From the NCBI RefSeq assembly GCF_055900595.2, contig NZ_CM148325.1: DNA of 64,000 nt. The stretch is one strand, 5' to 3'. A program made the position numbers and the translations under genes. Below, in pieces: positions 1-26,728 of this stretch. How positions within the stretch are numbered: position 1 is the stretch's first letter; every line of letters begins with the position of its first letter. Below the pieces are notes generated by a model. It was not told the DNA's origin, ran no database searches, and was given only the letters and a program-made list of their open reading frames with translations.

Positions 1-1069
1 CCAGTTCATGACATTTTTGCAGGGCGAAGGCAAACCAGCTTTTCACTTCTGCATCAAGACGCGTTTCCACGCTCAGGTCGATAGGGCTGTGCAGCAATGA
101 GCAGGAAGATGCCACCCACAAATCACGTTTGCCGACAATGTCCTTAATTTGCGCATATTTCTCGGTAAGATCGGCGCGCCAGACGTTACGACCATTGATA
201 AGACCAGCAGATAGCAGCCAGTCAGAAGGCAGACGCTTGTGCAGTTCAGCAACGTCATCTTTACCATGTACGAGATCGACATGCAGACCCTGAACAGGCA
301 GCGCAGTAATGGTGTCGAGATTTGGCGTTACGCCTTCAAAATAGGTAGTCAGCAGCAGTTTCACCTGGCCCTGGAGCGCGTCGTAAGCGGGTTTATAGGC
401 GTCCAGCCACGCCTGCGGCAGTTCCAGCACCAGCGCGGGTTCGTCGATCTGTACCCACTCAATGCCGCGTTTTGCCAGTTCTGCCAACACTTGCTGATAA
501 ACCGGCAGAATGTCGTTTAGCAGGCTCAGGCGATCAAACTGTTCACCTTTCACTTTACCCAGCCACAGGTAGGTAACCGGTCCCAGCAGCACGGGCTTGA
601 CCTTGTGGCCCAGCGCCAGCGCCTCGTCCACTTCCTCCAGCAGTTGCGTCCAGGTCAGTTTGAACTGTTGGCCTTTAACGAACTCCGGCACCATGTAGTG
701 ATAGTTGGTGTTAAACCATTTGGTCATTTCCGCTGCCGCCGCAGGTTCGCCAGTCGGCGCACGTCCACGACCAATACGGAACAGGGTGTCGATATCTACC
801 GAACCATCTTTGTTCTGGTGACGCGCCGGAACGTTACCCAGCAGCAGGCTGGTGGTCAGGACATGATCGTACCAGGCAAAATCACCCACCGGCAGCAGGT
901 CGATACCTGCTTGCTTTTGTTGATCCCAGTGACGAGCACGCAGTTCACGCCCTACCGCCAGCAGTTCTTCACGCGTGGAGTTCCCCGCCCAATAACTCTC
1001 TTGCGCTTTTTTCAGCTCGCGACGCAGGCCAACGCGAGGGAAACCGAGGGTGTGATTAAGAATTGTCAT
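1..1069 (-). CDS. metE: Cobalamin-independent methionine synthase MetE, N-terminal part only; the 3' end of the gene lies beyond the window start
   Basis: Minus-strand reading from ATG (plus 'cat' at 1067-1069) gives [21 protein letters not shown]..., which I recognise as the MetE N-terminus. Absent from the ORF track because no stop falls inside the window. Divergent from metR as in E. coli. Confidence 0.9.
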
Positions 1070-1186
1070 TATATGCCCCTTATGGAATTTTTAGTATTTA
1101 GCCGTCCAGATGTTTACACATCCATAATTGGCGGTTACTGTATATTCCTCAAGCGCAAATTATTCATGCCGAAGTGAAGGACTTTC
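1070..1186. promoter_or_regulatory. metE–metR divergent control region (expected MetR and MetJ operator sites)
   Basis: 117-bp gap between the divergent metE and metR starts. Contains met-box-like octamers (AGATGTTT, ACACATCC around 1108-1125) resembling the AGACGTCT consensus. Site positions were not verified. Confidence 0.45.
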
Positions 1187-2140
1187 ATGATCGAAGTAAA
1201 ACACCTGAAAACGCTACAAGCGTTGCGGAACTGCGGCTCACTCGCAGCCGCTGCGGCGACGTTGCATCAAACGCAATCCGCCCTGTCTCACCAGTTTAGC
1301 GATCTGGAACAACGCCTTGGCTTCCGGCTATTTGTGCGTAAAAGCCAGCCGCTTCGGTTTACACCGCAGGGAGAAATCCTGTTGCAACTGGCGAATCAGG
1401 TGCTGCCGCAAATCAGCCAGGCACTGCAAGCCTGCAATGAACCGCAGCAGACGCGCCTGCGCATTGCCATTGAGTGCCATAGCTGTATTCAGTGGCTGAC
1501 GCCCGCGTTAGAAAATTTCCATAAGAACTGGCCGCAGGTGGAGATGGATTTTAAATCGGGCGTGACGTTTGACCCGCAGCCCGCGTTGCAGCAGGGTGAG
1601 CTGGATCTGGTGATGACCTCCGATATTCTGCCGCGCAGTGGCCTGCATTATTCGCCGATGTTCGATTATGAAGTGCGTCTGGTGTTGGCACCTGACCATC
1701 CACTGGCGACAAAAACGCGAATCACGCCGGAAGATCTCGCCAGCGAGACGCTGTTAATTTATCCGGTGCAGCGTAGCCGACTGGATGTCTGGCGGCATTT
1801 TCTTCAGCCCGCAGGCGTTAGCCCGTCACTGAAAAGCGTCGATAACACCTTGTTGTTGATTCAGATGGTTGCCGCACGGATGGGCATCGCTGCTCTACCG
1901 CACTGGGTGGTGGAGAGTTTTGAACGCCAGGGTCTGGTGGTCACCAAAACCCTGGGCGAAGGCTTGTGGAGCCGACTGTACGCCGCCGTTCGCGATGGTG
2001 AGCAGCGTCAGCCGATTACGGAAGCGTTTATTCGTTCAGCGCGCAATCACGCCTGCGATCATCTGCCGTTTGTGAAGAGCGCGGAGCGACCCACTTACGA
2101 TGCACCCACAGTGAGGCCAGGATCACCAGCGCGCCTGTAA
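1187..2140 (+). CDS. metR: LysR-family transcriptional activator MetR
   Basis: 317-aa ORF beginning [45 protein letters not shown], an HTH LysR-type N-terminus matching MetR, divergent from metE. Confidence 0.95.
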
Positions 2141-2927
2141 TAAACGTTGGCCAGTGCGGCTGTTGGTGCCAGATAGCCAGGTTAACCAACAGCCCTGCCG
2201 GAACGTGCATATTATTCATAATGCCCAGCGTTCCGGCGTCCACCTGAGTCGCGCCGTAGTTCCACATAAAGTAGCCAATACCGGAAGCCACCACGCCAAG
2301 AAACACCAGAATGCCCCATTGCAGCGTGGTTTGCGGCATTTTCTGCGCATTTCCCAGCAAGAACCATGCAATCACCGCCACCAGGAACGCGCCAAGATAG
2401 AACCACGCAAAGGCGTTATGCTGCGGCATCGGGCGAGTTTCCATCAGGCGTTTGTAGCCCACCATGCCGATGGCAAAAGTGATATTGGAGAGTTGCACCA
2501 GCAACAGGCCGGTCCAGAAATGGTCAGTGACCTGATCATAGCGAATAATCCCGGCACCAATCACCGCCAACAAGGCGCTAAAAGCATAGCCCCAGCGCAG
2601 ACGGCGCTTACTCATGATGTCATAAATCAGCGTGATGTAGAGCGGCGTCAGTACGGTGAACAGCAACAGTTCGGAGACCGTCAGGTAGAGATAGGCGCGA
2701 AAACTCAGCATATACATCACGCCAAGCTGCATCGCGCCCACCAGCATATACAGACCGACCGTTTTCAGGCTATTGCCACGGGTACGCAGAAACGGCAGAA
2801 ACACGAGTGCCGCCAGGCCAACGCGCACCAGCACTGCAAAATAGCTATCGACGTGCCCCGCAAGGTACTCGCCATAAAAGCTAAAGGAGAAGGCCCACAG
2901 AATCGTGGTGATGATAAGTAGCGCCAC
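2028..2927 (-). CDS. yigM: Inner-membrane EamA/DMT-family transporter YigM (biotin uptake, BioP)
   Basis: The track ORF (2028..3002) is N-terminally extended. The polytopic membrane protein matches YigM (299 aa) if it starts at the GTG at 2925-2927 ([15 protein letters not shown]...). Its 3' end overlaps the metR 3' end by 113 bp. Confidence 0.85.
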
Positions 2928-3002
2928 AATGGAAAACTCTTTGATTAACGAGTATCCATTGTAGCGAAGTATCAGGTTGACAACTGACCAAATAAAGAAC
3001 AA

Positions 3003-3803
3003 TTACGATAAATAGAGTTTACGCAGATAATGCGGCACCGCGTCGTCGGCATTAGTACCAATCACTTCCAGCTCCGGATGCAGATCTTTCAGACGCTGGT
3101 GCGCACTGCCCATAATGCAGCCTTTACCTGCCATCGACAGCATTTCGGCGTCGTTCATCCCGTCACCAAAGGCAATACAATCTTTCAGACTGTAGCCCAG
3201 TTTCTTCGCTACCGCTTCCAGGGCATGGCCTTTTGAAACGCCACCCGCCATCACTTCCAGACAAGTTAGGGTAGAGAAGCTGACGTTGACGCGATCGCCC
3301 CAACGAGCGTTGATTGCCTGCTCCAGCGGCAGCAGTTGCTCATGGGAATCGCAGGTGAAGAACACTTTGCTGACGCCTTCCGGCTCCAGTAATCCTGGCT
3401 CATACAGCGCATATTTGAACACCGCTTCTTTAAAAAAGCGCATCTCTTCCGGGCGGTGGCGATTCATAAACCATTCGTCGTCGCGATAAACGTTAGTAAT
3501 GATGTCCGGGTTGTCGTTGACCACGCCAAACAGATCGCTGGCAATGTCGCGATCCAGGTTATGAGCAAAAATCAGATTGCCATCCAGATCGTGAACACGC
3601 GCGCCATTGGAGGTAATCATGTAAGACTTAATCTCCAGATTATCGCGAATTTGCCCTACATCAACGTGGTGGCGACCGGTCGCAAACACAAAGTTAATGC
3701 CGCGCGCGGTGAGCAGCTTCAGAGTTTCTTTGGCGTAAGGGGATAACGTATGGTCGGGAGAAAGTAACGTGCCATCTAAATCAGACGCAACAACCTGGTA
3801 CAT
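3003..3803 (-). CDS. yigL: HAD-superfamily sugar-phosphate phosphatase YigL
   Basis: Track ORF 3003..3929 trimmed to the internal ATG at 3801-3803, giving MYQVVASDLDGTLLSPDHTLSPYAKETLKLLTARGINFVFATGR (the HAD DxDGT motif), 266 aa. Immediately downstream of pldB, as in the pldB-yigL operon. Confidence 0.9.
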   Translation of the reverse strand: MYQVVASDLDGTLLSPDHTLSPYAKETLKLLTARGINFVFATGRHHVDVGQIRDNLEIKSYMITSNGARVHDLDGNLIFAHNLDRDIASDLFGVVNDNPDIITNVYRDDEWFMNRHRPEEMRFFKEAVFKYALYEPGLLEPEGVSKVFFTCDSHEQLLPLEQAINARWGDRVNVSFSTLTCLEVMAGGVSKGHALEAVAKKLGYSLKDCIAFGDGMNDAEMLSMAGKGCIMGSAHQRLKDLHPELEVIGTNADDAVPHYLRKLYLS

Positions 3804-17704: not shown

Positions 17705-18408
17705 ACGCGTTCAATCCAACGCTCCAGAAGCTCCGGCAACATCAGCGCAATTTCATGAAGTAACTGCGTTCCCTGCCCTTGTTGATAGTGACTGGCATCG
17801 CGGCTGGTGAACAGCACGACACCCAAATCAGCATCGCTTCCCAGCATCGACATCGCCACCGATCCCACCGCTTTCGCTTCCGGTAGCACCACCAGCAGCT
17901 CCGGTCCGTTAAGCGGCCCAAGATAGTGCTGTTCCTGCCCCAGACGCTGAATACGCAGCGGTTCGAAAGACTGACGGCTTAATGCGAGATGAGTGTGGTT
18001 CGACGGCGCACCTAAGCGCCAGCGATCCGGAAACAGGCGCAGACTCGCACCTGCCAGGCCGAGATCGCGCGCCCAGCGGTGAAAACGCATCAGCATATCG
18101 TCGAGACTGCTGGCGGCTGTGAGACTACGCTGCAGGTAAAGTAAGCGATAGAACAAGCCTTCGTTGGCGATAGCCTGTTCCATCAACAGCGCCATGTTCT
18201 CTTCCAGAACATGAATATGATGACGTGCGCGGGCCATGTGCCACTCGACCAACGAAACGGTGCCGCGTACCGGATGCGGCACACGTATCGCTTCTACTGC
18301 GCGCGCATTGCGGATAAAAAACTCAGGATTTTTAATCAGATAATCGACAACCGCCCGGTCATCTAGCTCCGTGAGTGTTTCCTGTAGTTCTTCCCCTGGT
18401 TGCTTCAT
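17701..18408 (-). CDS. yigA: Conserved protein YigA (DUF484)
   Basis: 235-aa ORF overlapping the dapF stop and xerC start by 4 bp each, in the conserved position between dapF and xerC. Confidence 0.85.
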
Positions 18409-19229
18409 AGATGAATAAATCCGTCGTAGACATGTACCGCCGGCCCCGTCATATATAAGGGGTGACCCGGACCTTTCCAGGCGATATCAAGACGACCGCC
18501 GGGGAGTTCCACACGTACTTCTTCGGCCAGCAAACCTTGCTGAATCCCTACCGCCACCGCCGCACACGCGCCGCTGCCGCAGGCCTGGGTTTCTCCTGCC
18601 CCACGCTCATAAACGCGTAAACGAATATGCTCGCGCTTAACCACTTGCATAAAACCGATATTAGCGCGCTCCGGAAAACGTTCGTGGCTTTCCAGAACAG
18701 GACCAAGCGTTTCTACCGCCGCAGTATCGACATCATCAACCTGAATCACGCAGTGCGGATTTCCCATCGACACCACGCCGCATAAGATTGTCTGCTCGGC
18801 GGCGCGCATAATATAGGTCTTTTCCGCTTTGTTAGCGCGAAATGGCACGGCAGAAGGTTCGAAGTTGGGTTCGCCCATATTGACGCGCACCAGATCGTCA
18901 TCGGTGACGGTCAGAACCATCCGCCCGTTGGCAGTGCTGACGCGGATATCGCGCTTATTGGTCAGCCCTTTCAGGCGCACAAAGCGGGCAAAGCAGCGCG
19001 CGCCGTTGCCGCACTGCGTCACTTCACTGCCATCAGCATTGAAAATGCGATAGTGAAAATCCAGTTCCGGATCATACGGTGGCTCAACCACCAGCAGTTG
19101 GTCAAACCCTATCCCCAGGTGCCGATCCGCCAGGCGACGAATCAGTTCTGGTGAAAAAAAGACATTCTGCGTTACCGCGTCGACGACCATAAAATCGTTG
19201 CCAAGGCCATGCATTTTCGAGAACTGCAT
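18405..19229 (-). CDS. dapF: Diaminopimelate epimerase DapF
   Basis: [33 protein letters not shown]... with the active-site region around [12 protein letters not shown]; started at the second Met (274 aa). Confidence 0.95.
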
Positions 19230-19265
19230 CATTTACTCCAATCACGCGGGTACAGAAACTGACTT

Positions 19266-19469
19266 TTAGTAATTCACCTGGGATGGGCCATCGCCAGTGG
19301 CGCGGTCGTTTTTATCCGGCACCGTGGATTGCGTTTGCGTCTCTACCGGTTTGGTCGGTGGCGGTGCGTTTTTATCTGCAGGCGGGAAATAGAGCGGACC
19401 TTTCAGACCGCAGCCCGTCAGGCTGAAGAGAGTAAGTAATACAGTGAGTGCCTTAAACACGTTTTTCAT
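19266..19469 (-). CDS. yifL: Small lipoprotein YifL
   Basis: 67-aa ORF MKNVFKALTVLLTLFSLTGCGLKGPLYFPP... with an LTGC lipobox, directly upstream of dapF. Confidence 0.85.
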   Translation of the reverse strand: MKNVFKALTVLLTLFSLTGCGLKGPLYFPPADKNAPPPTKPVETQTQSTVPDKNDRATGDGPSQVNY

Positions 19470-19557: not shown

Positions 19558-19560
19558 GTC
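19558..19560. repeat. Target-site duplication (GTC), left copy, flanking the IS629-like element
   Basis: GTC immediately abuts the IS terminus at 19561 and is repeated at 20871-20873. Confidence 0.75.
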
Positions 19561-19602
19561 TGAACCGCCCCGGGTTTCCTGGAGAGTGTTTTATCTGTGA
19601 AC

Positions 19603-20493
19603 TCAGGCTGCCAGATCATCGTTTCCGATGGAAGCATAATAAGCTTTTTCTGCTTCTGCCGGAGGAGTATGGCCCAGCCTTCCCAGCAATCGTCGATTGT
19701 TATACCAGTCCACCCACGTTAGTGTGGCCAGTTCCACTTCTGCACGGTTTTTCCAGCTCTTACGGTGTATTACCTCCGCTTTGTAAAGACCATTGATGCT
19801 CTCAGCCATCGCGTTGTCATACGAGTCGCCTGTACTCCCTGTTGATGCCAGTAATCCGGCTTCTTTTAGTCGCTCCGTATAGGCCAGTGACACATACTGA
19901 GAGCCTTTATCGCTGTGATGGATGGTGCCAGACGGACGACGGGCCCACAACGCCTGCTCCAGCGCATCCAGCACGAATGTCGTTTCCATAGACGATGAGA
20001 CCCGCCACCCCACGATGTATCCGGCAAACACATCAATGATAAACGCCACATAGACGAAGCCCTGCCATGTGCTGACGTAAGTAAAATCAGCCACCCACAG
20101 CTGGTCAGGTCGTTCTGCCACGAACTGACGGTTTACGCGGTCGCCTGCGGCAACGGCTTTCCGGCTGATGGTCGTACGGACCTTTTTACCCCGGAGAACA
20201 CCGGCAAGTCCCATAACCGCCATGAGACGTGCCACTGTACATCTGGCCACCCTGATTCCTTCCCGTAACAACTGACGCCAGACTTTACGCACACCGTACA
20301 CCTGATGATTTTCATCGTATACGCGCTGTATCTCTCTCTTCAGCCAGTCGTCGTGCTGCGCACGGGCACTGCGTTTATCCGGATGATGTCGCTGTTGCTG
20401 ACAATGGTAATACGTTGACGGGGCAATATGCAGTTCGCTGCATACCGGTCCGACCCCGTACTGCTCACGCAGCTTATCCAGCAGTGGCATCAT
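19603..20493 (-). CDS. IS629-like transposase OrfB (DDE integrase/catalytic domain)
   Basis: 296-aa ORF ([33 protein letters not shown]...) with an rve-type catalytic core (…[31 protein letters not shown]…[10 protein letters not shown]…[16 protein letters not shown]). In the -1 frame relative to orfA. Confidence 0.9.
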
Positions 20494-20816
20494 TTTTTCC
20501 AGAGGCGGTCGAACTCCGCCTTCGCAAAATAAGCGGAAGCCTGGCGAAGGATATCGTTACTGCGGCGCAGTTCACGATTTTCACGTTCCAGCTCTTTCAG
20601 ACGCTGACGTTCAGCGCTGGTGAGCCCACCATCACCGCCCCCGGTATCCCGCTCATGCTGGCGAACCCAGACACGCAGAGTCTCCGGCGTACAGCCAATC
20701 TTTGGAGCAATGGAACAAATTGCCGCCCACTGTGAGTCATATTCATCCTGACTTTCCAGAACCATACGAATCGCCCGCTGACGGACTTCGGGGGAAAAAC
20801 GAGTATTTTTAGTCAT
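20490..20816 (-). CDS. IS629-like transposase OrfA (HTH and leucine-zipper protein)
   Basis: 108-aa [67 protein letters not shown]...[28 protein letters not shown]. Ends in the A-run CTCTGGAAAAAATGA, where orfB begins in the -1 frame. Confidence 0.9.
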
Positions 20817-20870
20817 CCTGTTTACCTCTTTCTCAGGGAGTTTAGTCTCCAGGATTTCCGGGGCGGTTCA

Positions 20871-20873
20871 GTC
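20871..20873. repeat. Target-site duplication (GTC), right copy
   Basis: Direct repeat of 19558-19560, immediately outside the IS terminus at 20870. Confidence 0.75.
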
Positions 20874-20970
20874 TGAAAAATGAGGAATTGCTGCGAGTAT
20901 AACGCTTACACGTGGGGATTTATGTTTTGCTGGTAGTTTCGTGATCGGCACCTCGCGCCAGGATGGCTTT

Positions 20971-22449
20971 ATGCACTATCGCAATGTGGTTTGTTTGTTG
21001 TCTTGTTCGTTATTCTTATCCCCGGCATGGGGATGTCGGCTTTCCGCGCCTGAACATAATATTTACCAGAAACAGGGAAAAGGCGTGGTGTACCTGCGCC
21101 CTTATAAAGAAACAAATCTTTCTCTACCTGACGTGAATTACAAGAGTTTGCGTCGTTTACCTAATTTATTAATAGACGCAACAACACAAGATGAATGGAA
21201 TAAAGAACCACCTCTGACTGATCTAACAACTGACAACCTCTATGAGGGCGCACAAGCCTGGTATCCCCATTACTCCTGGCATAGCGATGGTCGCTATATC
21301 CTCTACGCGGGTGAAGTAGTGCAAAATCCTCACGACGCACCACCCGTCGATATCGCCTCATTCAAGGCATGGGGAGATTTTGCCGCGGATAAACACAGTC
21401 TCTATTTTGAAGGCAAGCGCACCGATAACAATGGCGGGGGAAATAGCTTAGATATCAAAACACTGCATCAGGTGGAATTCCGGCCTCCCTGGGATCCTGA
21501 CTTACTGGGGCTGATATTACGTGACGCTAATTTCTTGTATATCAATGGGCATCGCCTCGCAGATCCCGATAGTTTCCGTGTGCTGGCACAAAAGTCATGG
21601 GATCAGCGAGGAAAGTTTTCTACCGCGTTTAATCCCTGTGTGGCTATGCCATTTGGCCCCTGGGATACCCTGGCTCGTACACGGACCAAAATCCTGATCA
21701 ACGGCGAACAGCTTGATGCCGACCCGGACACCTTTTCCGTCGTGCGCTGGATGCCCGGCTCACTCTTGACCTGGCGTGATAAAAACGGGCTACAGCGTAA
21801 AGTCCTCGACAAGGAAAATCTGGCGTGGGATGAAGATTTAACAAAGCACTGTCTGGATTTTTCTCTGCTGGAAAAGAAAGTGTTCTGGCGTAAAGGGCCT
21901 GCTTGTAAACAGGAAGAATTACCGGGGCTCGATCCTGAACAGTTCCACCCCATCAGTGATGCTGTCGCCCAGTATCAGGATTCGCTTTATACCATCATCG
22001 AAACAGAGTCTGGTGACCGCAAGCTGGAGATCGTAAAACTTGATGATCCCAATCTTATTATCAACAAACGTTTCAACGCCGGGAAACGCCATGGCTATTT
22101 ACTTACGCGTGCCGAAGGGTGGCCAAACCATTCCGGTTTACACGTGTTTGAATCTGACGGACCGCTGATCTTACTGGATAACCACTCTCCGGATGAACGC
22201 GAAGCCCATCTTGATGACCATCCCTTTTTGCGCAGATGGTATGCCCGCGATAACCGCTACGTTTACAGCTTTGATGGCGCGCAGCTCTGGCGATACCGCA
22301 CTGCGGATCCGAAACAAGTTCGCTTAATCTGGAAGGAACAACATTCGGGATATGGCTACGGGGTAAATTACAAAACGGGATATCTGGACGGAAAAATTAC
22401 CGATGACGGCGAATTTATTCCTGCCCCGCGCAATGAGGCGACAAAATGA
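20971..22449 (+). CDS. Secreted protein with DKNYY-like repeats (paralogue 1); function unknown
   Basis: Track ORF 20941..22449 trimmed to the ATG at 20971, with AGGA 7 nt upstream. Hydrophobic signal-like N-terminus MHYRNVVCLLSCSLFLSPAWGC. Recurrent motifs DKHSLYFEGKR, DANFLYINGHRLADPDSF and DNRYVYSFDG. Family assignment is by motif recall, not a database search. The segment looks AT-richer than its flanks by eye. Confidence 0.75.
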   Translation: MHYRNVVCLLSCSLFLSPAWGCRLSAPEHNIYQKQGKGVVYLRPYKETNLSLPDVNYKSLRRLPNLLIDATTQDEWNKEPPLTDLTTDNLYEGAQAWYPHYSWHSDGRYILYAGEVVQNPHDAPPVDIASFKAWGDFAADKHSLYFEGKRTDNNGGGNSLDIKTLHQVEFRPPWDPDLLGLILRDANFLYINGHRLADPDSFRVLAQKSWDQRGKFSTAFNPCVAMPFGPWDTLARTRTKILINGEQLDADPDTFSVVRWMPGSLLTWRDKNGLQRKVLDKENLAWDEDLTKHCLDFSLLEKKVFWRKGPACKQEELPGLDPEQFHPISDAVAQYQDSLYTIIETESGDRKLEIVKLDDPNLIINKRFNAGKRHGYLLTRAEGWPNHSGLHVFESDGPLILLDNHSPDEREAHLDDHPFLRRWYARDNRYVYSFDGAQLWRYRTADPKQVRLIWKEQHSGYGYGVNYKTGYLDGKITDDGEFIPAPRNEATK

Positions 22450-23774
22450 AAGGTCAAATAATCACTGTTGCACTCATCCTGTTGGGGCACATATTTCTGA
22501 CGCCTGCTGTACAGGCCATAGGGTTCGACTATTACAATGATCACGGTGTTATGTCTTACGGTAAAGGTTATGGGGAGGATGAGAAAATCATTGCCCAATT
22601 TCCGAAGATGAACAGAGCCGATTTACGCCTTGTGACAAATATATCCAGGGAGCGGGAGTTGGTGGAAGGCTATATACCCACCGATGAAATAAGCATAAAA
22701 AATGAGGAATACCACTGGGTGACAGACGGCCGCGTTATTCTCTGGCGTGGCAAAATCGTTAGCAATCCACCGGGAACACCCACTGTCGATATTGCCAGCT
22801 TTCAGGCTATGGGCCGCTTCGCGGTCGATAAATATAGCCTCTATTTTGACGGACAGCGCACCGAAAGTAATAGCGGCGCGTCACGTGTTGATCTGGCGAC
22901 ACTAAAAGCTATCGAAGGTAACTCTACCACGCTGGTGGATAGTAAAAATCTCTATTTGTCCGGTCGACGTCAGGGGAGCAGCAGTAATGTTACTGTATTA
23001 GAAAAAAGATGGTGGGGTATTAATCCACGTCTTATGAGTGTAAACAGAAATTTGTATTCCAATGATCTGCTTATCCGCAGTGGGCAGAATATTTATTTAA
23101 ATGGCGTTCACCTTACGGCGAATGCAGACTCATTTGAGATAATTCGCTGGATACCTCATTCACTGCTGGTTTTTCGCGACAATAAGGGTATGCATCGTTA
23201 TCCCTTTGGGCAATTGTCTGGCAAAGCGATACCCGTAGATGATGACGTCTCTTTTGAAGTAGGGGAAAGTCGCGTTCGCTGGCGTAAACAGCTCACGTCC
23301 GACCGTCAGTGGAGCCAGTGGATAGACCTACCAGGTATTGAACCTGAACAATTTCATCTGATTACTGACAATATTGCGCAGTATAAAGATCGGCTGTATG
23401 TAACAAAATTATCGACTTTTGGTGAAGACCAGCTTGAAATAATCCCGCTGGATTTGCCAGACCTGGTCATTGATCACTCATTTAATCGCGGCAAACAGCA
23501 TGCTTACTTTATCCACCAATTACGGTCACGCAAGAGCGTGCAAATTATTCCAGTTAACGGCCCGCTAACTAAAAACGATCGCTTTGCTTATGACGATCGC
23601 AATGTTTATACATGGACCGATACAGAGGTAAGGATTACACCCTCCCCCTGCCCAGCGAAAACATACGTCAGAGAAAAGAATGTCCGTGAAATTCATAATA
23701 GCGACATTATTATTCCGGTGACGGAGGAATCGTGCCGGAACGCAGCAGCAGACGGGCAAACTTTGAAGCCCTGA
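22446..23774 (+). CDS. Secreted protein with DKNYY-like repeats (paralogue 2); function unknown
   Basis: 442-aa ORF whose ATG overlaps the stop of the upstream gene (ATGA at 22446-22449), with GAGG 8 nt upstream. Sec-type signal MKGQIITVALILLGHIFLTPAVQA. Alignable blocks shared with paralogue 1: W.SDGR.IL..G..V.NP...P.VDIASF.A.G.FA.DK.SLYF.G.RT and G..PEQFH.I.D..AQY.D.LY. Confidence 0.75.
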   Translation: MKGQIITVALILLGHIFLTPAVQAIGFDYYNDHGVMSYGKGYGEDEKIIAQFPKMNRADLRLVTNISRERELVEGYIPTDEISIKNEEYHWVTDGRVILWRGKIVSNPPGTPTVDIASFQAMGRFAVDKYSLYFDGQRTESNSGASRVDLATLKAIEGNSTTLVDSKNLYLSGRRQGSSSNVTVLEKRWWGINPRLMSVNRNLYSNDLLIRSGQNIYLNGVHLTANADSFEIIRWIPHSLLVFRDNKGMHRYPFGQLSGKAIPVDDDVSFEVGESRVRWRKQLTSDRQWSQWIDLPGIEPEQFHLITDNIAQYKDRLYVTKLSTFGEDQLEIIPLDLPDLVIDHSFNRGKQHAYFIHQLRSRKSVQIIPVNGPLTKNDRFAYDDRNVYTWTDTEVRITPSPCPAKTYVREKNVREIHNSDIIIPVTEESCRNAAADGQTLKP

Positions 23775-23821
23775 CACCATGCCGCTATACTGCCGCCATC
23801 ACCTAAAAACAGGAAACAACA

Positions 23822-24142
23822 ATGAACGACAGTGAATTTCATCGCCTGGCCGATACCCTGTGGCTGACCATTGAAGAACGTCTGGATGACTGGGATGGCG
23901 ACAGCGATATCGACTGCGAAATCAACGGCGGTGTGCTGACCATTACCTTTGAAAATGGCAGCAAAATCATTATCAACCGTCAGGAACCGCTGCACCAGGT
24001 TTGGCTGGCAACCAAACAGGGCGGCTACCATTTTGATCTGAAAGGCGACGAATGGATTTGCGACCGTAGCGGCGAAACCTTCTGGGATTTGCTGGAACAG
24101 GCGGCAACGCAGCAAGCGGGTGAAACAGTCAGTTTCCGCTAA
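23822..24142 (+). CDS. cyaY: Frataxin homologue CyaY (iron–sulphur cluster assembly)
   Basis: 106-aa [66 protein letters not shown]..., matching CyaY; convergent with cyaA. Confidence 0.95.
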
Positions 24143-24181
24143 GATTGCATGCCGGATAAGCCTCGCTTTCCGGCACGCTCA

Positions 24182-26728
24182 TCACGAAAAATACTGCTGT
24201 AATAGCGGCGTGTCGTGATCCTGATTGGCAGGCGGCATGTTGCCGATAGATTTGGTGCGGAACGGAATCACCTGTTCACGACCATCAACCTTCACAATTT
24301 GATAGAACTGCGGCAGGTTGAAGTTGATGAAGCTTGAGCCGTAGGTGAAACGGTCGTGCGAAGACGAGTAGAAGCGACTGACGTCACGCACCAGTTCCTC
24401 TTTGCTGCCTTCGCAGTGGTGATACACCTCAACCCGGTTGCTTTCGTCGAGAATGTAGATATTAAAGCCATTCTCGTCTTGCGTTTCTTCGAAGAAGAAC
24501 TGGATGATCCCTTCGCTGGCAAAGCCGTCCACCACCGCCGGTAATTTGACGTGATTGGTTTCAACCTGCACTGACAGGCCGTGCAGTTTGTTATGCGAAA
24601 TAGCGCCATAAAACTCGATGGCATTTTCCAGTTTCTGTACCGATACATTCAGGCGTTCGAAGAATAAGCCCCAAGTTTGACCAGAAACGCGCAGCGCCTT
24701 GAAGCGCCCGGTTTCCTGGCGGGTGCTGGAAAGACGCAGTTCAATGCACTCAGAAACCAGTTGCTGCACGCGAGTACGGATTAAGCCGCGCAGATGCTGG
24801 CTGTAGCAGAAGACTTCCACGCTATCTGGCGGTGCGGCGTCCTGATGCATTTTGCCGAGAATGGTTTTCAGGGCTTCGATCATCGACTGCTCGCCGTTGA
24901 AGTGCAGCGTACGCACTTCGTTCCACGAGTTGCGGTACAGCAGGTCAACGCTACCTACCAGGCAATTTTGGTTTTCGCCAAAGCTGAAGACGTCCAGCTT
25001 ACGGAAATCAAAATGCACCACCTGATTGCGGAACGCAGCTGTCGGGTCATATTCCAGGTTAACGATAATCGCCAGATGGCGAATTTCACACGGGCTGTAG
25101 AGCGCTTTTGGCGTCGGTGCAGGCAGGCGCAGCGGGAAATGGTGCGACACATCGGCGACCATCTCCTGCAACTTAGGCAAATCGACAATGCCGTTGCCTT
25201 TAATATACAAGCGGGTGCGCGAGGTCAGCAGGCCGTTAAACCATGCCCACGCCACCAGTTTATTCAGGTAACGGTTATATTCCAGCGGCTGATGGCTGAT
25301 GATCGACTCAATATTTGGCGCGCGGTTATACAGATACCAACCTGAACGGTTAGCCCGGCCCGGCGGCACATAAATAAAGGTCAGATTCGGTTCCGAGAGA
25401 TCGGGCGAAATCTGCGGGTTTACCAGCGTCACTTTACCTGGCAATGCTTCAAACGCGGCGTACAGTTTACGCGTCAGAACACCGATATCCTGTGGGCTGG
25501 CGGAGACGCTAAGGTTATTGCGACGCGCAAAGCGGATCAGATTACGGTAGCTCTGCATCATTGCATCGAGCAGCTCGTTGTGCGCCTCACGCACCTGATC
25601 AATCTTCCAGTTAGCGCGGTTATCGAGCATTGCAAGACGACCATCGTCCCATTCCCACTCTTTCACTAACTGGGTTAGCACTTCACGACGCCAGCCTACA
25701 CAGGCGCGTTCACGGCTGAGTTTTTCGCACACTTTTAAATAGAAGCAGCGACGCACTAAATCCAGACGGGTGAAATCTTCAATCGCCGTCAGGTATTCAG
25801 TAACACGCTCCAGCATCATGCAGTACGGATCGAGACCAAACGATACAATCTCGCCGTCGTGCAAACGCTGTTTGATATCTTTCGCCAGCAGACGTGGGTT
25901 CGGGTATTCCCAGGAATAGGCTTCCAGCAGCAGTGTTTTCAGTACCGCTTTGTATGGGGAATCGATACTCTTGTAGAGCTGCCAAAGGCTGGCACCAAAG
26001 TACTCTTCAGCAGAAAGCGAGCTTAAGCCACCGAGATCCAGCCATTCATTTGGCGTCAGCACGCCCTGCGCGTAAAGCGTCATCACATAGTCATCGTAAT
26101 GCTCTTCTTCGTCACACGGCACCATATTCCACAGAATACGCTTACCGGCGAGACGCACGGCGGTACGATAAAATTCGTCAAGCAGCAGTATATGCTGGGT
26201 GGAGCCACAATCTTCGCCCCCCAGGCTGCCGCTTTCATTATGACGGAAGCGATTTTCATCAATCAGGAAGAAGCTAACTTCCACGCCCAGCGAGGCGGCC
26301 CAGCTTTCCAGCAGGCTGCATTTACGTTGTAGTAACTGGCGCTCTTCGCTATCAAGCCAGGATTGATGACAGACCCAGATATCCAGGTCAGAGGAACAAC
26401 TTTGCCCTACGGACGAGGTGCTGCCCATGGTGTATACACCAGTAATTGGAAGCTCACCTTTCGGCGGATCCTGTACTGACATTCCACGATACAGTTCAAG
26501 CTCGTTCAGGTAGTGGCGTTGAGTTTCATCAGGCGTGTAAAGGCAAATGCCTTTGGGAACGTTACCATCAAGGTAACCCGGCATTAGCGGATGGTGATAG
26601 TGCAACAATGTCGGCAGTAGACTGTAGACCTGTTGGAATGCAGGCCCCATAGCAGCAAGCGCGCGATCCACGCGCAATTGATTTATGGCATCCAGTCTCT
26701 GTTTCAGAGTCTCAATATAGAGGTACAA
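24182..26728 (-). CDS. cyaA: Adenylate cyclase (class I)
   Basis: 848-aa [50 protein letters not shown]..., starting at a TTG (plus 'caa' at 26726-26728), consistent with the known UUG start of E. coli cyaA. Confidence 0.95.

Follow-up and report, generated by a model that had tools for sequence, protein, structure and literature searches.

The frataxin homologue gene cyaY in the DNA analyzed here, a 64,000-nucleotide stretch of contig NZ_CM148325.1 (assembly GCF_055900595.2) termed the window, is very likely transcribed from a σ70 promoter of its own that straddles the end of the upstream DKNYY-like gene, g2. The initial annotation had proposed that inserted genes displaced the native cyaY promoter, and it implied an arrangement special to this genome. 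Displacement is not what we found, as the 47-bp spacer in front of cyaY still contains the −10 hexamer, the discriminator, the leader and the Shine-Dalgarno sequence, which are conserved throughout the family. Nor is the arrangement special, since 5425 of 5426 complete E. coli genomes, K-12 included, contain the same 76 bp. A further suggestion, that a promoter might extend into the terminal part of the gene upstream, was essentially borne out, with the −35 hexamer located in the last g2 codons. These results remove a false lead: in this strain cyaY is neither promoterless nor uniquely tied to acquired genes, and K-12, where cyaY was studied, shares the upstream sequence. The evolutionary interest lies in a housekeeping promoter that would have outlasted the insertion of an island, keeping its −10 and acquiring a new −35 from the coding end of the island.

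Layout of the lptM–cyaY locus and the IS629 copy

According to the list of open reading frames, dapF (18405–19232) and lptM, also named yifL (19266–19469; 100% identity to the annotated LptM region, WP_000799889.1), are encoded on the minus strand, lptM being the ancestral divergent neighbor of cyaY. They are followed by a 1310-bp IS629/IS1203 element of the IS3 family (19561–20870, minus strand) and, on the plus strand, by g1 (20971–22449), encoding a hypothetical protein of 492 aa that is a distant paralogue of g2, by g2 itself (22446–23774; DKNYY-like, 442 aa) and by cyaY (23822–24142), which encodes the bacterial frataxin homologue of 106 aa annotated as 'iron donor protein CyaY' and is 99–100% identical to annotated E. 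coli CyaY at the protein level. Further downstream, cyaA (24182–26728) lies on the minus strand.

The reading frames and the sequence confirmed the initially described junction, with the g2 stop at 23774, the cyaY start at 23822, a gap of 47 bp (23775–23821) and the Shine-Dalgarno sequence AGGAAA at 23811–23816, 5 nt upstream of the cyaY ATG. The length of the spacer alone is not unusual. From the lptM start codon (19469) to the cyaY ATG we measured 4352 bp, in agreement with the earlier figure of about 4.3 kb. The inserted DNA had been placed on the cyaY strand as a whole, which holds for the two DKNYY-like genes and not for the IS reading frames on the minus strand. That genes were inserted into a divergent lptM–cyaY region proved true at the level of the family: in most genera of the Enterobacteriaceae, including Salmonella, Citrobacter, Klebsiella, Kluyvera, Enterobacter, Kosakonia, Raoultella and others, the two genes are divergent and only ~138 bp apart.

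For g1, the mechanical open reading frame begins at a GTG at 20941 (502 codons), and the annotated start at 20971 (492 codons) is backed by a conserved AGGA-N8-ATG arrangement. At 22446–22449 the stop codon of g1 and the start codon of g2 share the sequence ATGA, an overlap suggestive of translational coupling between these two DKNYY-like paralogues. Compared with the Pfam DKNYY family, g2 yielded a weak match (E = 0.017) and g1 no significant one (E = 4.9), and a search of NCBIfam gave no significant hits for either protein; g2 homologues of other strains carry the annotation 'DKNYY family protein'. The amino terminus of g2 contains a signal-peptide-like sequence, MKGQIITVALILLGHIFLTPAVQA.

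The window is E. coli DNA, and the boundaries of the IS were defined by comparison with the IS-free strain E200086, which is 100% identical to the window over 20870–24200 apart from lacking the IS629 copy. The element ends in the terminal inverted repeats TGAACCGCCCCGG and is flanked by a 3-bp target duplication, GTC, at 19558–19560 and 20871–20873. It contains two overlapping reading frames (19603–20493 and 20490–20816, minus strand) and an ALIL frameshift pseudoknot (RF01497; 20419–20535, 121.5 bits), and it is 99.6–99.9% identical to annotated IS1203 copies. A size of ~1.3 kb, inverted repeats, a 3-bp duplication and two overlapping frames with a frameshift signal thus identify it as an IS3-family element of the IS629/IS1203 type. 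The divergent genes lptM and g1 flank the copy, their ATG codons lying 91 bp and 97 bp away, respectively; it spares the conserved 80 bp next to lptM as well as the sequence next to g1, and its transposase genes are directed to lptM–dapF, away from g1. By these comparisons, the IS629 copy is the sole strain-specific insertion in the region, g1 and g2 being older. Its effect, if any, would be on the upstream regulatory input to g1, and the expression of lptM–dapF might be affected as well.

Elements of the cyaY promoter and their conservation

The promoter prediction upstream of cyaY that had been recommended for this locus was run as a simple σ70 consensus scan and yielded TTGAAG-17 bp-TATACT on the plus strand, with 9 of 12 consensus matches. 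The −35 hexamer TTGAAG (23763–23768) lies within the last codons of g2, the 3′ end of which reads ...ACT TTG AAG CCC TGA; the hexamer corresponds to the TTG AAG codons, and the stop codon TGA (23772–23774) falls within the 17-bp promoter spacer. With four of the six positions of TTGACA its quality is modest; the same box, AACTTTGAA, appears in a published K-12 table. The −10 hexamer TATACT (23786–23791) is located inside the 47-bp gap, agrees with TATAAT at five of six positions, including A at position 2 and T at position 6, and equals the −10 of the K-12 table. It is followed by the G+C-rich discriminator GCCGCC (23792–23797; 0.7–1.6 bits per position across species), by the inferred transcription start at A 23798, 7 nt past the −10, and by a leader of 24 nt (23798–23821) that contains the Shine-Dalgarno sequence. 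G+C-rich discriminators are typical of promoters under ppGpp/DksA repression.

Promoter-like matches of the 9/12 type are no commoner than chance, with 3 sites in 5.1 kb compared to 5.5 expected from shuffled sequences. Since the scan score alone is at chance level, the promoter call derives its weight from conservation and from the 5′ end mapped in K-12. We aligned the 110 nt preceding the cyaY start codon at the cyaY loci of 80 Enterobacteriaceae species. TATACT was invariant in 79 of the 80, with 2.0 bits at all six positions, and was located at −33 to −44 from the cyaY ATG, mostly at −35 to −37. Common to all loci is one block, in which TATACT-GCCGCC-ATCAC is followed by an A-rich stretch and the Shine-Dalgarno sequence. 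Upstream of TATACT, the homology ends in every lineage in which the neighboring gene is not lptM. At the −35 position the compact species have CTGCAA (three of six consensus positions) at equal spacing, and island carriers have TTGAAG or TTGATG (four of six). Unrelated expansions of the lptM–cyaY gap, the smallest of 155 bp and the largest exceeding 6 kb, occur in at least 10 other Enterobacteriaceae species, all with TATACT at the same distance. The few bases immediately preceding the cyaY −10 would thus seem to be a site at which unrelated insertions have repeatedly ended across the family.

Two Klebsiella loci had no lptM within 6 kb of cyaY. E. coli 23CRST031 carries a three-gene island variant (1–3045 of its locus), the last gene of which encodes 141 aa and gave no family hit. 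Its spacer before cyaY is 82 bp long, and similarity to the window starts exactly at TATACT, so that yet another sequence occupies its −35 position.

For K-12, Table S1 of Mendoza-Vargas 2009 (PLoS One 4:e7526; PMC2760140) gives a cyaY 5′ end at −24 from the start codon, observed as one 454 read of cDNA ends (frequency 1) and assigned to quality class 3, the lowest, along with the predicted σ70 boxes AACTTTGAA (−35) and GCTATACT (−10), printed as tgcaAACTTTGAAgccc and tgccGCTATACTgccg. Transferred by alignment, this single-read end falls on A 23798 of the window. With the 454 method a processed end cannot be told from a primary one, and K-12 lacks an intact island; taken alone the K-12 end is weak, yet it coincides with the site predicted independently from the invariant −10. 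The K-12 and window promoters are alike in both boxes and in a start at −24 from the ATG, and they differ at one spacer base between the −35 and +1 and at 2 of the 24 leader positions. They also differ in context, the −35 lying in the frame of the intact 442-aa gene in the window and within a non-coding relic of that gene in K-12. Promoter elements intact within 23700–23821 together with a start mapped there had been named at the outset as the result that would speak against co-transcription; the elements are indeed intact, and the mapped 5′ end is that of the one K-12 read. For the window strain, we infer promoter activity from the sequence elements, their conservation and distribution, and this K-12 end.

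The conserved block TATACTGCCGCCATCAC might instead be a protein-binding or RNA-level element within a longer leader, with transcription starting farther upstream, for example at a second promoter-like match inside g2 (23686–23713, GTGAAA-16-TATTAT). Such a match does exist, and the single K-12 read could represent a processed end. However, the upstream match is missing in the compact species and is not kept in K-12-type genomes, in which the homology begins at 23700, and the invariant hexamer is itself a near-consensus −10. Moreover, the spacer had no match to an Rfam family, the fold predicted for 23730–23840 was no better than that of shuffled sequences (z = 0.94), and a motif search detected no IscR type-2 motif near cyaY. 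We rejected an RNA element in the spacer as well as the inner start site, and regard the non-promoter function of the block as scarcely credible.

A cyaY-lacZ fusion carrying the K-12 'cyaY promoter region', the fragment boundaries of which are not given, was expressed and little changed by iron chelation. A phrase search of the literature for the cyaY promoter returned one cyaY-lacZ paper, in which no boundaries are mapped.

The DKNYY-like island, its relics and the origin of the −35 element

The two DKNYY-like genes make up an island that is old and variable and has a G+C content of 0.44–0.51, compared to 0.52–0.58 for the flanks. An intact copy of it occurs in 1393 of 5426 complete E. coli genomes (at least 80% coverage of 20820–24200). 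E200086 and ATCC 25922 are island-bearing strains. The remaining genomes of this set, including K-12 derivatives, contain an lptM–cyaY remnant of ~460 bp, for which the annotation gives a partial 'DKNYY family protein' with a frameshift. The K-12 remnant is composed of the lptM side with the first ~47 g1 codons (window 20870–21127) and the last 23 g2 codons with the spacer (23700 onward); as it joins the start of g1 to the end of g2, K-12 is a deletion derivative. In the locus of the K-12 derivative J53 the pseudogene relic spans 1929–2232. In pairwise alignment, K-12 and the window share the 122 bp that precede cyaY. The 76-bp segment 23755–23830, reaching from the −35 through the first cyaY codons, was detected by blastn at an identity of at least 90% in all E. 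coli genomes but one (5425/5426), and at a coverage of at least 80% in 5408, so that genomes with the promoter segment are about four times as numerous as those with intact g1–g2.

DKNYY-like genes occupy the lptM–cyaY gap in Escherichia (E. coli, E. albertii and unnamed Escherichia species) and sporadically in Pseudocitrobacter vendiensis, Citrobacter sp. FP75, Phytobacter diazotrophicus and Atlantibacter hermannii, and remnants of them are present in Kosakonia sp. S29, E. whittamii and Escherichia sp. E1V33. The latter two carry a g1–g2 deletion relic of the K-12 type, indicating that the intact/deleted polymorphism is either common to several species or was moved between species by recombination. 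Some E. coli have an additional DUF3304-domain gene between lptM and g1, and the gene content of the island is thus variable; in E. coli O111:H8 (1198–3066 of its locus) the DUF3304-domain gene is split by an IS1203 copy. A candidate second copy of the cyaY promoter upstream of g1 (TATAAC at ~20913) was discarded, as the likeness is absent in the Pseudocitrobacter, Citrobacter and Phytobacter islands.

Comparison with insertion-free genomes, likewise recommended at the outset, located the original −10 within the spacer, and only the ancestral −35 and its spacer, ~28 bp in total, are gone. Like the compact lptM–cyaY region of Salmonella, Citrobacter, Klebsiella, Kluyvera and Enterobacter, the window retains TATACT, a GCCGCC-type discriminator, the leader, the Shine-Dalgarno sequence and the lptM-side ~80 bp, along which the ancestral homology extends as far as GCGTTTAGCG. 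In contrast to the compact region, the ~28 bp containing CTGCAA are replaced in the window by the island, the 3′ end of which supplies TTGAAG at 17 bp.

In the sequence of events that we propose, the island would have entered between the back-to-back lptM and cyaY promoters, replacing roughly 28 bp, i.e. the ancestral −35 (CTGCAA, 3/6) and spacer, and leaving the cores of both promoters otherwise untouched. From its −10 onward, the sequence would represent the retained ancestral enterobacterial cyaY promoter, to which the 3′ end of the island would have contributed a slightly better −35 (4/6) at the correct spacing. Strains such as K-12 would later have lost most of the island, keeping its last 75 bp. 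The resulting mosaic promoter is common to essentially all E. coli.

The final 18 nt of g2 are identical at 18 of 18 positions in the variants of E. albertii, Pseudocitrobacter and Escherichia sp. MOD1, whereas the preceding 135 nt are only 59–63% identical. This pattern fits a putative selection on the −35-bearing codons; alternatively, it could reflect recombination tracts that travelled with cyaY and ended there. That the last 18–20 nt of the DKNYY gene were co-opted as the cyaY −35 and were retained for this reason is a plausible, if tentative, proposal. If true, co-option would explain the sliver kept in every E. coli, including the ~74% without the island, as well as its identity across island variants that are only ~60% alike.

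Hybrid promoters, in which inserted DNA provides a −35 to a resident −10, have been described for many insertion sequences. The cyaY promoter resembles them in that the incoming DNA brings a −35 at the proper distance from a resident −10. Unlike in the IS-made hybrids, the sequence donated at cyaY comes from the coding 3′ end of an island gene and not from an IS terminal repeat, and the cyaY promoter was already functional, so that its −35 would have been exchanged, in contrast to the activation of a new promoter. The IS629 copy of the window has no part in the hybrid promoter. The cyaY promoter is an ordinary σ70 promoter, the K-12 counterpart of which was already contained in the 2009 genome-wide table; mildly new is the apparent exaptation of the last codons of an island as its −35 and the survival of this element in island-less E. 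coli. As the −35-bearing piece outlived the island in most E. coli, the locus offers a clean natural case of promoter turnover. It also calls for caution when the K-12 'pseudogene relic' upstream of cyaY is to be deleted. In the limited literature collection searched we found no paper on the history of the lptM–cyaY locus, and the term 'DKNYY' gave nothing relevant.

Probable read-through from the upstream genes

The genes g1, g2 and cyaY share the strand, the short gap and the lack of a predicted terminator that are expected of an operon. An operon would, however, have no promoter between the upstream gene and cyaY, and because the conserved promoter (23763–23798) sits between g2 and cyaY, cyaY does not qualify as an obligate member. 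It is highly improbable that cyaY has no functional promoter and is expressed solely as the third gene of a g1–g2–cyaY operon, following the regulation of the accessory genes. Besides the common strand and the 47-bp gap, no terminator or stable hairpin was predicted between g2 and cyaY, and the region upstream of g1 is also kept in the K-12 relic, so that read-through would be possible in all strains. Yet an unchanged −10 stands at a fixed distance from cyaY even in species without a co-directional upstream gene, the K-12 5′ end was mapped 7 nt downstream of this −10, and the promoter segment persists in 5425 of 5426 genomes whatever the state of the island. With its own promoter, cyaY is independent of read-through from the upstream genes.

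No terminator-like site was predicted between 23088 and the end of cyaY, and any transcript of g1–g2 should therefore run on into cyaY. Such read-through probably adds to cyaY transcription, secondary to the gene's own promoter. Co-transcription with the acquired genes, as initially considered, thus does not stand as the sole route to cyaY mRNA, and partial read-through is likely. A stronger version, in which read-through from g1–g2 contributes a substantial, condition-dependent share of the cyaY mRNA and partly couples cyaY to the island, and in which the IS629 copy 97 bp upstream of the g1 ATG might alter this coupling, is possible although rather doubtful. In addition to the missing terminator, the untranslated gap between g2 and cyaY is too short for efficient Rho loading, and the IS cuts g1 off from everything beyond −97. 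On the other hand, the transposase genes point to lptM, so that IS-driven transcription into g1 is not expected, and the G+C content of the island is below that of its flanks, low-G+C genes often being poorly expressed, which may also hold for g1–g2. The preferred reading remains transcription of cyaY mainly from its own promoter.

On the minus strand, we observed an antisense open reading frame of 140 codons (23693–24115) that covers the cyaY promoter and most of cyaY. Its K-12 counterpart has 161 codons (1957–2442 of the locus of the K-12 derivative J53), and 'cyaY-yzcX', of which yzcX may be this frame, has been named as a divergent excludon in K-12 in a 2025 paper.
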